This document shows positions 29,568 to 32,557 of a DNA stretch of 64,000 bases, in pieces. The translations under genes were made by a program, and so were the position numbers. The notes beneath the pieces are model-generated. The model made no database searches. It was not told the DNA's origin and saw nothing but the letters and a program-made list of their open reading frames with translations. Location: positions 15,922 to 79,921 of the forward strand of contig JANXTZ010000028.1 of NCBI GenBank assembly GCA_025352125.1. The letters are read 5' to 3'. This DNA is from Deinococcales bacterium. Its GTDB lineage: Bacteria > Deinococcota > Deinococci > Deinococcales > JAAFIG01. How positions within the stretch are numbered: the first letter of the stretch is position 1; each line of letters starts with the position of its first letter.

Positions 29568-30215
29568 TTACTGTCCGTAAACGTTGGTATAGCGGTCATG
29601 GAGTTTGTCAATATCCGCCTGGGCAATCGGTTGGACGTTTCCAAGCTGCATTGCCAAGAACACGGTTCGTGCCACGTCCTCGCACATGACTGCCGCTTTG
29701 ACTGCACTTTTTGCAGTTTTGCCAAGTGCGAACACGCCGTGATTTTTTAAAATAATTGCTGGGCTGCGGTGACCAGTTAAGACCCGTACAACCTCATGCC
29801 CAATCTCTTCGCCGCCAATCAAGGCAAAACCGCCGCATGGAATCGGACCGCCAAATTCGTCCGCCATCGCGGTCAAGACGCACGGGATTTCTCGAGCATT
29901 CGCCGCCCACGCCGTGGCATACGGACTGTGCGTGTGAACAATTGCGCCGACCTCGGGCATGTGCCGGTAAATGTAGGCGTGGGTCGCGGTGTCTGATGAT
30001 GGTTTCAAATTTCCCTCAACAACATGCGCCTCGAGATCGGTGACGACCATGTTCTCAGGACTCAGTTCTTCAAATAACAAGCCGCTGGGTTTGATCACCA
30101 TCTGGCTCGAGTCAAAATCCCGCGCACTGAGATTCCCACCCGTCCAGGTCACCAAATTGTTCTTCGGCAACTCGAGATGCCATTTTGCGACTTCAATTCG
30201 CAGTTGCTCGAGCAT
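29568..30215 (-). CDS. araD: L-ribulose-5-phosphate 4-epimerase
   Basis: VTWTGGNLS, IKPSG, PSSDTATH, VHTHSPYATAWA, LKNHGVF and YTNVYGQ motifs. Confidence 0.93.
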   Translation of the reverse strand: MLEQLRIEVAKWHLELPKNNLVTWTGGNLSARDFDSSQMVIKPSGLLFEELSPENMVVTDLEAHVVEGNLKPSSDTATHAYIYRHMPEVGAIVHTHSPYATAWAANAREIPCVLTAMADEFGGPIPCGGFALIGGEEIGHEVVRVLTGHRSPAIILKNHGVFALGKTAKSAVKAAVMCEDVARTVFLAMQLGNVQPIAQADIDKLHDRYTNVYGQ

Positions 30216-30288
30216 CACGGGTTCTTTCGGGGGTTGGTTGGCATTCGGTTCTCCTTGAGAATTCAAATCGGACTCGAGGCAGGACAGG

Positions 30289-30388
30289 CAGGACGCAGCA
30301 AGCTTCTTGACTGTAAAACGCACCTTCTTGGTTTCAAAACGCACCCAACGGGCGAAACCGCTAACGGGCATGGTCGCAGCGTCCCTAC
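30289..30388 (-). mobile_element. GTAG-type REP hairpin interrupted by a 37-nt mini-element that carries a second 37-nt mini-element
   Basis: Inner copy 30324-30360; outer copy 30303-30323 plus 30361-30376. Removing both restores GTAG-GGACGCAGC-TT-GCTGCGTCC. Confidence 0.75.
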
Positions 30389-32046
30389 GATTTTTTAATT
30401 TGGTTGCGGATGGCTTTCAACCGTTTCATGGCATCGTTCGCGCCGCGACCAAAATAATCGTGCAGGGTCTTGTACTCGGCGTACAGGGAATCGTAAATGC
30501 GGGAATGCTCGAGGTTGGGCTTAAAGGCGCTTTTGATGGATTTGCCCATGACGCTGGCGGCAGCATAAATATCTGGGTAGACGCCTGCGGCAACGGCGGC
30601 ATGAATAGCGCTACCCAGCGCAGGACCTTGACTCGAGGCTGCCACGCTCAGTTCTCGTCCGGTCACGTCGGCGTAAATTTGCAAAAGCATTTTGTTTTTG
30701 ATCAAGCCGCCCGCGATCACCAGTTCTTTGACCGGAACGCCGGAGGCTTCAAAAGCTTCAATGATCGTGCGCGTGCCGTAAGCCGTGCTTTCGATCAAGG
30801 CGCGGTAAATATCGGGTGCTCGAGTCGCCAGGGTCATGCCGATCATCATGCCGCTCAGTTCGGTGTCCACGAGCACGCTGCGGTTGCCGTTCCACCAATC
30901 GAGCGCGATCAGACCGTGCTCGCCTGGGACTTGTGTTTGCGCAAGGCTGGTCAGGTGGGCGTGAATGTCCATGCCTGATTCTCGAGCCGCAACATGGTAT
31001 TCAGGCGGGACGCCGTGTTTGACAAACCAGCCAAAAATATCACCGACGCCGCTTTGCCCCGCCTCGTAACCGAACATGCCTGGACTGACGCCGCCGTCAA
31101 CCACGCCGCACATGCCTGGAACTTCGGCGAGGGTTGCGCCGTTCATGATGTGACAGGTGCTTGTGCCCATAATCAAAACCATCTGACCTGGTTGCACGGC
31201 GTTGGCTGCAGGCACGGCAACGTGCGCGTCCACGTTCGCCACCGCCACCGCAATGCCTGGTGTCAAACCAGTCCAAGCCGCAGCTTGAGCACTCAAACCA
31301 CCAACTCGAGCGCCCAGAGCGTCAAGCTTTTTTGAGAGTTTTTCTTGCGCGAAATCTGCAAAACCAGGATTGAGTGCGCCCAAAAATTCGCGGCTGGGAT
31401 ACTGACCATCCTGAAAATTGGCTTTGTAACCGGCGGTGCAGGTGTTGCAAGTCTCAACGTTTGAGAGCTGCCAGATCACCCAATCGGCAGCCTCGAGAAT
31501 TCGGTCTGCCGCCGCGTAAATCTCTGGGGCTTCCTCGAGAATTTGCAATGCTTTGGCGAGCATCCATTCGCTCGAGATTTTCCCGCCGTAACGCGGCATC
31601 CAAGCTTCATTTCTGGCTCTGGCAAGCGCGTTGATTCGGTCGGCGTGGGGCTGCGCGGCGTGGTGCTTCCAGAGTTTGACATACGCGTGAGGATTGTTGC
31701 GGTGTTTGGACAGAAAACACAGTGGCGTGCCATCGGCGTTGACGGGCATTACGGTACATGCCGTGAAATCAATCCCAATGCCGATCACATCTCGAGCATC
31801 AATCCCAGCGTTTTTGACGGCTTGGGGAATCGTGTGTTTGAACACCTCGAGATAATCCTGCGGGTCTTGCAGTGCCCATTCTGGAGGCAGTTTTGCGCCG
31901 CTCGAGAACAGGCTGTCGTCCATGACGCCGTGAGGATAATCAAAGACCGCGCTCCCCAATTCTGCGCCATCACTGACGCGCACGACCACGGCACGCCCCG
32001 AGAGCGTGCCGAAATCAACCCCAATTGTATGACGTTCATTTGACAT
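30385..32046 (-). CDS. araB: Ribulokinase
   Basis: GVDFGTLSGRA, IGIDFTACT, YVKLWKHHAAQ, YGGKISSEW, MGTSTCH, YEAGQSGVGD and LDWWNGNRS motifs. Confidence 0.96.
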   Translation of the reverse strand: MSNERHTIGVDFGTLSGRAVVVRVSDGAELGSAVFDYPHGVMDDSLFSSGAKLPPEWALQDPQDYLEVFKHTIPQAVKNAGIDARDVIGIGIDFTACTVMPVNADGTPLCFLSKHRNNPHAYVKLWKHHAAQPHADRINALARARNEAWMPRYGGKISSEWMLAKALQILEEAPEIYAAADRILEAADWVIWQLSNVETCNTCTAGYKANFQDGQYPSREFLGALNPGFADFAQEKLSKKLDALGARVGGLSAQAAAWTGLTPGIAVAVANVDAHVAVPAANAVQPGQMVLIMGTSTCHIMNGATLAEVPGMCGVVDGGVSPGMFGYEAGQSGVGDIFGWFVKHGVPPEYHVAARESGMDIHAHLTSLAQTQVPGEHGLIALDWWNGNRSVLVDTELSGMMIGMTLATRAPDIYRALIESTAYGTRTIIEAFEASGVPVKELVIAGGLIKNKMLLQIYADVTGRELSVAASSQGPALGSAIHAAVAAGVYPDIYAAASVMGKSIKSAFKPNLEHSRIYDSLYAEYKTLHDYFGRGANDAMKRLKAIRNQIKKS

Positions 32047-32453: not shown

Positions 32454-32557
32454 TTTTTTTGTTTCAAGATGCACCTTGCGGGCAGCATCGCTTCTTGATG
32501 CCAAGATGCACCTTGCGGGCAGCATCGCTTCGGCGGCAGGGGCGTGCCGCACGCCCG
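32454..32557 (-). mobile_element. Two tandem copies of the 37-nt mini-element next to a REP-like palindrome
   Basis: 30-nt exact direct repeat 32465-32494/32502-32531 (period 37); adjacent hairpin GGGCGTGC-(C)-GCACGCCC at ~32540-32556. Confidence 0.7.

Follow-up and report, generated by a model that had tools for sequence, protein, structure and literature searches.

Nested 37-nt repeats within a GTAG palindrome of the araB-araD spacer in a Deinococcales bacterium: a candidate family of very small mobile elements

Introduction

Repetitive extragenic palindromes (REPs), bacterial interspersed mosaic elements (BIMEs) and REP doublets (REPINs), together with the REP-associated tyrosine transposase (RAYT, or TnpA-REP), are known as a system of short, extragenic, high-copy hairpins that lie mostly at gene ends (PMC3733652; PMC3116915). 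The sections of Di Nocera et al. (2013, PMC3733652) that deal with them describe REPs whose insertion targets are palindromes and note that stems vary from one family to the next, and they list GTAG REPs for Proteobacteria, Cyanobacteria, Chloroflexi and the Planctomycetes-Verrucomicrobia-Chlamydiae (PVC) group, with Deinococcota not among the phyla named there. We analyzed a window of 64,000 nt from a Deinococcales bacterium (GenBank assembly GCA_025352125.1, contig JANXTZ010000028.1, positions 15,922 to 79,921 of the forward strand), in which the spacer between araB and araD holds a GTAG REP with a 37-nt element at its loop boundary, and this element in turn has a 37-nt element of a second subfamily in its apical hairpin. 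This element, hereafter the 37-mer, is likewise a short, extragenic, high-copy hairpin found mostly at gene ends.

Insertion sequences (IS) of the IS200/IS605 family, such as IS608 and ISDra2, insert 3′ of a fixed short target without duplicating it. Their transposase, TnpA, recognizes subterminal secondary structures and passes through single-stranded circular intermediates, as stated in the portion of PMC6006769 devoted to it. The 37-mer resembles these elements in its hairpin ends, in strand-specific insertion beside a fixed short sequence and in the lack of target duplication. Miniature inverted-repeat transposable elements (MITEs, such as Correia/NEMIS, RUP and Nezha) are given, in the passages of PMC3733652 that treat them, as 70-300 bp long with terminal inverted repeats and target duplications. 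With MITEs the 37-mer has in common that it is non-autonomous, intergenic, structured and transcribed with its neighbours. The small dispersed repeats (SDRs) that Elhai et al. reportedly described in 2008 in heterocyst-forming cyanobacteria are said to be non-coding, 21-27 nt long, often nested and found in hairpin contexts, to have been argued to be mobile and to have no known enzyme. The cyanobacterial repeats differ from the 37-mer in sequence, length (37 nt here) and phylum. A literature search of limited scope found no description of the 37-mer family in Deinococcota, although one may exist elsewhere.

Results

A nested insertion between araB and araD

We denote the genome under study as G000, five genomes of the same genus as G001-G005, and contigs by C-numbers, C34 being the contig that holds the window. 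The layout was read on the minus strand, to which all coordinates in this paragraph refer and on which the araB-araD spacer is 168 nt long with GTAG at its start. araB (ribulokinase, 30385-32046) was taken from the list of open reading frames (ORFs) and identified by NCBIfam TIGR01234 (780 bits against a cut-off of 583), and araD (L-ribulose-5-phosphate 4-epimerase, 29568-30215) by NCBIfam NF005123 (349 bits, cut-off 251; residue 2 is the first one matched). The GTAG tag of the host REP (30385-30388), which also heads the uninterrupted REP in G001, G004 and G005, encloses the araB stop codon TAG (30387-30385). It is followed by the REP 5′ arm with the first loop bases (GGACGCTG, 30377-30384), after whose final G the outer 37-mer enters. 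The left half of this outer unit (16 nt, 30361-30376) belongs to the GACCAT-arm subfamily, ends in TTAG and recurs in G002 with one difference. The inner 37-mer (30324-30360), assigned to the GGTTTC/GAAACC-arm subfamily by copy identities, best nhmmer class and predicted fold, is intact with 6/6 stem pairs. The right half of the outer unit (21 nt, 30303-30323) has a 3′ arm decayed to ACAGTC, which leaves 4/6 stem pairs, where G002 retains ATGGTC. The remainder of the REP loop and the REP 3′ arm (CTTGCTGCGTCC, 30291-30302) close the structure. Both REP pieces are defined by their inverted repeat (8/9 pairs) and by the empty orthologous REPs, the second also directly by its sequence.

An independent repeat search returned two abutting 21-nt direct repeats (30303-30323 and 30324-30344, 81% identity), as well as the inverted REP arms (30291-30299 and 30376-30384; 9 nt, 8/9 or 89% complementary), which lie 76 nt apart, i.e., 2 x 37 + 2. 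The inner unit equals the copy at C10:55402 over 36/36 bases (E = 2.5e-14), and six further copies match it at 89-97%. These matches far exceed chance. Layout, repeat search and inner-unit copies together confirm what the initial annotation had read here from the window alone, namely an element within an element within a GTAG REP. The hairpin that it restored by removing both units is real, but not perfect as claimed: its 5′ arm is GGACGCTGC and not the GGACGCAGC given there, hence a central T·T mismatch, 8/9 pairs and a 6-bp perfect stem. The repeated AG that it noted at the inner junction is present, but represents a 2-nt ambiguity of the insertion point rather than a proven duplication.

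The host element is a typical REP of the GTAG-plus-stem-loop kind, with the tag, a 6-bp stem and dispersed copies in G000, where 47 REP heads match GTAGGG[GA][CT]GC on both strands. By eye these correspond to ~32 distinct REP loci, ~12 of them filled with 37-mers. The element at 60755-60782 (minus strand), which had been put forward as the uninterrupted relative of the host, is on by-eye comparison a REP relative (24/28 bases match the genus REP) and is uninterrupted, but it is not an intact hairpin, as its 5′ arm is degenerate (3/6 pairs).

Empty and filled sites in related genomes

The initial annotation had proposed comparing the araB-araD spacer among relatives. G001, G004 and G005 carry the same GTAG REP (e.g., GTAGGGGCGCTGCTTGCTGCGCCC) at the same position without an insert, the REP of G004 having a perfect 9-bp stem. 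G002 carries two nested 37-mers at the same two junctions, its inner unit having GACCAT arms and not GGTTTC. G003 has an unrelated 274-nt spacer that lacks this REP and contains another 37-mer in another host repeat. None of the five genus-mates shows local duplication at araB-araD.

Series of empty, single and double sites were found at other loci. At the C82 locus, the REPs of G003, G004 and G005 differ in type and are empty, G001 and G002 each carry a single unit (of different subfamilies), and G000 has two. At C10:76177, three relatives lack the REP, one has it empty, one has a single unit in the opposite orientation, and G000 again has two. At C76:114309, where G000 also has two, three relatives have an empty REP, one lacks the REP, and in one the contig ends. 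Across these orthologous sites each gain equals 37 nt or a multiple of it, with no target duplication beyond 1-2 ambiguous bases, and particular lineages have made these gains, repeatedly and independently of one another, at the same REP loops. The comparison supports stepwise gain and rejects local duplication, and we consider it very probable that this is a real nested insertion of mobile elements. The claim of two sequential insertions thus holds for stepwise gain, and is less certain as to both steps having occurred at araB-araD itself.

The C82 orthologs also differ in the REP itself, whose arms read GGGGCGAGG in G003 and G004 and GGGGCGC in G001, G002 and G005, and which is flipped in G000. 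REP type or orientation varies at one orthologous point, which implies that REPs themselves turn over at fixed sites.

The 37-mer family and its distribution

An nhmmer profile returned 183 hits in G000 at E up to 10, 85 of which were full length, with lengths of 37 nt (50 copies), 36 nt (22) and 38 nt (13). The 37-mer starts with C, followed by one arm of a 6-bp stem (positions 2-7 with 26-31), an inner hairpin core GCCCGnnAGGTGC, a T-rich bulge and an AAGAAG tail. The core, the rTyTT that follows it and the tail are nearly invariant, whereas the stem arms vary by subfamily yet stay complementary (examples: GACCAT/ATGGTC, GGTTTC/GAAACC, GATCCC/GGGATC, GATTCC/GGAATC, GGTCTC/GAGACC and GATGCC/GGCATC). 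In 47 distinct 37-nt copies, 97.5% of stem cells were paired, compared with 74% on average (79% at most) after shuffling and 16-49% with a slid partner, and 5/6 stem pairs showed double-sided changes. Lone units fold as predicted, with modest z scores (-0.9 to -2.2). The column profile, which starts with CG and ends with AAGAAG, contains neither a GTAG nor a CGTC tag, and the two ends are not inverted repeats of each other.

The 37-mers are short, palindromic, high-copy and extragenic, 76/82 copies lying between ORFs in a crude ORF scan. Fifty of the 82 stood between co-directional ORFs, 20 between convergent and 6 between divergent ones, and no orientation bias relative to transcription was observed (27 sense, 23 antisense). 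Seventeen gaps between neighbouring 37-mers were <=5 nt, the units being nested or abutting without spacers, which differs from the arrangement of clustered regularly interspaced short palindromic repeats (CRISPR). Head-to-tail runs of four or three units (period 37 or 39, no spacers) occur at G009:C56:44164-44292 and G014:C51:61199-61294, so that tandem arrays of the family exist in another genus too.

The core motif was counted 63 times in G000, 91-199 times in the five genus-mates and 7-38 times in ten genomes that belong to three other genera of the same family, and it was absent (0 counts) from G007 and G011, which represent a fourth genus, and from G015. The reversed control motif gave 0 in every genome counted. 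In 22 genomes from other families of the order, nothing matched the repeat part of the query. A wider contig scan for the core motif gave at least 120 listed matches, among which the contigs with several matches were all metagenome-assembled genomes (MAGs) of Deinococcales and the single matches elsewhere looked like chance; these matches set no firm outer limit to the family. Among the genomes searched, the 37-mer family is known only from one uncultured Deinococcales family.

Insertion sites and targets

The base that precedes the element is G in 82/83 copies, and the base before that is A in 66/83. At least 20 of the 83 copies lie within another 37-mer. In each case the guest follows the AG with which the apical tetraloop of the host closes, and host and guest arms differ in all 20 nests parsed in G000. 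Hits within 100 nt of each other were co-oriented in 27/27 cases, with none opposed. At the REP-loop junction, where the dinucleotide is the self-complementary GC, both element orientations occur.

Hairpin targeting, which the initial annotation had inferred from a single locus, gained statistical support: when the empty site is reconstructed, 22/62 non-nested copies have a perfect hairpin of >=6 bp across it, compared with 216/3000 random AG sites, although several hosts are themselves repeats, so that the copies are not all independent events. The junction lies in the loop in 12 of these 22 hairpins, in the 3′ arm in 9 and in the 5′ arm in 1. Junction classes based on minimum free energy (MFE) were too noisy and were replaced by an explicit search for perfect stems. 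Beside the dependence among copies, two further observations weigh against a general rule of insertion at hairpin loops. Only 35% of non-nested sites have a perfect hairpin of >=6 bp, and one host repeat receives the insert deep in its 3′ arm.

A model with target duplication was also considered. Over its last 2-3 bases, the left flank agrees with the tail slightly more often than under permutation (52 vs. 44.9 and 32 vs. 24.6), but this excess traces to a few copies in related host repeats, and pairs of empty and filled sites show no duplication; the model was not adopted.

A second host repeat, which forms a separate family, consists of a hairpin (CCCTTCTCC-loop-GGGAGAAGG) followed by GGTyGGGGATGAGGG and occurs at 60610-60700 of the window and at many other loci in G000 (e.g., C28:45223, C34:85679 and C36:9279). 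It takes 37-mers at three fixed points, after GATGTTG, GGAGAAG and GGATGAG. In the window, a 36-nt variant of the 37-mer with GACCAT arms (60643-60678, plus strand; nhmmer, fold z = -2.2) sits in the 3′ arm of such a hairpin (CCCTTCTCC...GGGAGAAG). Upstream of araB, a head-to-tail pair of units with GATGCT/GGCATC arms, the second truncated, lies at 32462-32527 on the minus strand (nhmmer, C34:48448-48412 and 48411-48382), next to a gene that is not conserved in the relatives' loci compared.

tRNA genes are among the targets as well. Outside the window, contig C5 of G000 carries 19 tRNA genes in <4 kb (C5:746-4497). Its tRNA-Leu(UAG) gene, c[2551,2700], has a 73-nt nested pair of 37-mers at position 32/33, and its tRNA-Arg(UCU) gene, c[4173,4286], has a single 37-mer at 37/38, both in the anticodon loop. 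Uninterrupted copies of tRNA-Leu(UAG) and tRNA-Arg(UCU) are present on C35 and C29. The 37-mers in tRNA genes make ARAGORN report introns. A further sequence feature of G000 is CTCGAG, present at ~28,200 sites in 4.53 Mb (56,430 counting both strands), or about one per 160 bases, and found in nearly every flank displayed.

Coding features next to the nested repeat

The GTAG tag provides the stop codon of araB, which is relevant to annotation. On the other side of the repeat, araD starts at ATG 30215, where its profile match begins (or at GTG 30218), not at the ATG 30371 of the ORF list. Its frame is open upstream through the entire nested repeat to ATG 30371 on the minus strand, and an automatic gene caller could append ~50 false residues to the 5′ end of araD. 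Outside the repeat, the spacer is bounded by a mini-ORF of nine codons (MPTNPRKNP; 30215-30244, minus strand) with a strong AAGGAG site ahead of it, whose TGA overlaps the araD ATG. Spacers of the five genus-mates, read by eye, encode similar peptides (..TNTRKNP or near variants), and from these sequences it looks like a conserved coupling mini-ORF.

Discussion

Order of events and alternative explanations

That one 37-mer lies within another proves that the guest entered the host at some time, not that it did so at araB-araD itself. The history that we favour, though only a little above even, is of two steps in place: the REP would have been there first, the outer unit would have entered it in the common ancestor of G000 and G002, and the inner units would have come later and separately in each lineage. 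It is favoured because the outer unit and the REP variant are common to G000 and G002, because their inner units differ, and because the outer stem is decayed (4/6 pairs) and the inner one intact. G000 and G002 group together in the araB tree (support 88/91) and have the same compensatory change in the REP stem (GGACGC/GCGTCC), and their outer units differ at 4/37 positions, which is similar to the flank divergence of ~13%. A rare G at position 15 is common to the inner unit and to C10:55401. Three observations tell against this history. In the araD tree, G002 goes with G001 and G003 (83/94) and not with G000, and since G002 and G001 also have an indel in common adjoining the REP, recombination near the spacer is possible. 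No genus-mate among the five has exactly one insert at araB-araD. Finally, an identical 73-nt composite of host and guest is found in C82, within a REP loop, and in C5, within the anticodon loop of tRNA-Leu. Nested units therefore probably also move as one piece, and the two steps need not both have occurred at araB-araD. A one-step arrival, in which a composite of 73-74 nt made elsewhere was inserted whole into the araB-araD REP and G002 gained a different composite independently, draws further on the 8/9 intact GGTTTC-arm units that are guests in another 37-mer (by eye; seven parsed, plus C76:197189), on many 74-nt composite matches of 88-97% identity in all five genus-mates, and on the independent insertions documented at one REP at the C82 locus. 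We hold it to be unlikely, if a serious contender, as the araB-tree sisters G000 and G002 agree in outer unit type, insertion point, orientation and REP stem change; the unequal decay of the two stems in G000 suggests unequal ages, and the G002 inner unit has the arm type of its host, a combination seen in 0/20 parsed G000 nests. It is clearly less probable still that a loaded REP of ~100 nt replaced the resident empty one through REP turnover or gene conversion. Three REP nests of G000 do have the same forward architecture (C34, C82:32803-32903 and C10:76177-76275), the G000 REP differs in orientation or loop type from those of its relatives at the C82 and C10 loci, and the double stem change GGACGC/GCGTCC coincides with the load. 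However, ordinary homologous conversion would need longer arms than the 6-9 bp of the REP; the araB-araD REP agrees with the empty relatives in position, orientation, GTAG tag and loop remainder; no other G000 REP with both changed arms was seen among the 47 heads listed; and no RAYT was found in G000.

If the units were intercistronic mRNA hairpin modules (stabilizers or attenuators) that spread mainly by recombination, with nesting as a result of structural selection by the host, one would understand why the copies lie mostly between co-directional (50) or convergent (20) and rarely between divergent (6) genes among the 82, why the araB-araD copy falls within a likely araB-araD transcript, and why stems covary. 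This is nonetheless improbable to a marked degree, given the lack of orientation preference relative to transcription, a composite that folds no better than shuffles, and no match to Rfam covariance models at E up to 1 in 30150-30450. Furthermore, sister species differ in presence at the same site and have different units at the same point, copies occur inside tRNA genes, and recombination does not account for gains of exactly 37 nt at targets without homology. Local tandem duplication or replication slippage could have made the 21-nt and 16-nt pieces in place, as the adjacent 21-nt direct repeats of 81% identity would suggest, but the arm pairs of the two units, each complementary within itself, are not the same (GGTTTC/GAAACC inside GACCAT/ACAGTC), their order is left-left-right-right and not tandem, the inner unit is identical to the C10 copy, and relatives show an empty REP or another inner unit; we give this explanation hardly any credence. 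The same very low standing applies to an artefact from assembling a repeat-rich metagenome bin. Within the repeat, Logan contigs do break and depth is up 24-26 fold, but exact contigs chain over the nested region in four runs (29900-30332, 30330-30376 and 30348-30800), and the same architecture was assembled independently in G002, at other loci and in other genera. The contigs of these four DNA runs, which come from one study and possibly from the source sample, contained no joint that skips either unit; being contigs only, they have no bearing on polymorphism. Among the sequencing runs listed as holding the sequence, none was RNA.

A possible mechanism

In our proposal, the 37-mers are non-autonomous mobile DNA that would move as a single strand. 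An enzyme acting in trans would recognize the folded hairpin with the conserved core and would cut 3′ of G, usually AG, both at the AAG end of the element and at the target G. Hairpin loops or sites close to them would serve as targets (REP loops, the edge of the tetraloop in another 37-mer, other GC-rich hairpin repeats and tRNA anticodon loops), and the element would be joined in one orientation relative to the target strand, following the logic of the “peel and paste” transposition of IS200/IS605 elements, whose transposases are of the Y1 type of histidine-hydrophobic-histidine (HUH) enzymes. An apical insert would leave the stem and ends of the host intact, so that the composite of host and guest would probably still be mobile, which would explain accretion and the spread of nested forms. 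The model rests on exact gain without duplication, a fixed flanking base, strand-specific orientation, a conserved core with a variable stem, and structured targets. Taken together, these features bear the mark of single-strand HUH (Y1) transposition as IS608 and ISDra2 show it. We regard such an HUH-type, single-strand mechanism as the best model but a tentative one, with a probability somewhat short of even.

Much of what we found on the enzyme side weighs against this mechanism. No matching transposase for the 37-mer was identified in G000. The three G000 matches to PF01797 (Y1_Tnp) are all of the IS200 type and not RAYT (one interrupted by TGA, one weak, and one truncated by the end of its contig), and neither a REP nor a 37-mer adjoins any of them. 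Y1 genes do not track the repeat across 19 genomes of the family: G007 and G011 have Y1 genes and no core motif, and G008 and G006 have core motifs and no Y1 hit. No repeat was found within 1.5 kb of ten Y1 genes, and one lies ~1.2 kb off an eleventh. Element orientation was unrelated to local GC skew (Fisher's exact test, P = 0.8-1.0), though at low power, the median absolute skew being only 0.012. The nested 108-nt region folds no better than shuffles do (z = +0.3 as DNA, +0.2 as RNA). All genomes are incomplete MAGs, G000 being 92.5% complete in 84 contigs. At that completeness, where a gene could be missed, no RAYT flanked by REPs was found in G000. Neither core motif nor tail was seen beside the Y1 genes of G000 or at ten loci of relatives, so these genes and the 37-mer do not share ends. 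Between neighbouring units no IS-like parent was found, the 19 intervals all being single-copy except one with 2 hits. A 183-aa IS200-type Y1 gene lies in the same context in two species (G001:C69 and G003:C545, flanks 86-89% identical) and was not seen in G000; on sequence context it looks vertically inherited, as would be expected of a domesticated gene and not of an active IS.

Relation to described elements and significance

Compared with REPs and REPINs, the 37-mer lacks a GTAG or CGTC tag, forms no inverted doublets (0/27 pairs opposed) and comes without a RAYT found so far. It nests in its own kind at one fixed point, and the REP is here the target and not the guest. It differs from MITEs in its 37-nt gain, in the absence of duplications >=2 nt in pairs of empty and filled sites, and in having no IS-like parent among the sequences searched. 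By our comparison it appears to work most like a minimal derivative of an IS200/IS605 element: insertion without duplication, beside a fixed flanking sequence and in a specific orientation, is what was observed, and IS200-type TnpA genes are present in the genus. It is, however, ten times smaller than known derivatives of that family and has one compound hairpin in place of distinct left and right ends; no TnpA gene has ends that match it, its target is only (A)G plus a structural context, and no replication-strand bias was detected, at low power.

We put forward, as distinctly less likely than not, that the 37-mers may be undescribed, ultra-small, RAYT-less single-strand mobile elements that insert strand-specifically 3′ of G at the edges of hairpin loops, stay mobile after they are themselves invaded, and so build intergenic mosaics by nested accretion. 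The mobilizing enzyme might then be a protein with no link to transposition so far, or else an IS200-type TnpA that works in trans on ends other than its own. The spread of REP-like repeats is still largely inferred, and sister species that carry none, one or two units at the same locus record insertion directly, as few natural cases do. The 37-mer family follows unusually clean rules: it adds exactly 37 nt behind a G, in a fixed orientation when the host is of its own kind, and its hairpin targets include tRNA anticodon loops. As it does so in a lineage in which no RAYT was found, it is well suited to a search for the enzyme behind such elements, and also to testing whether mosaic, BIME-like intergenic repeats grow by nested accretion.

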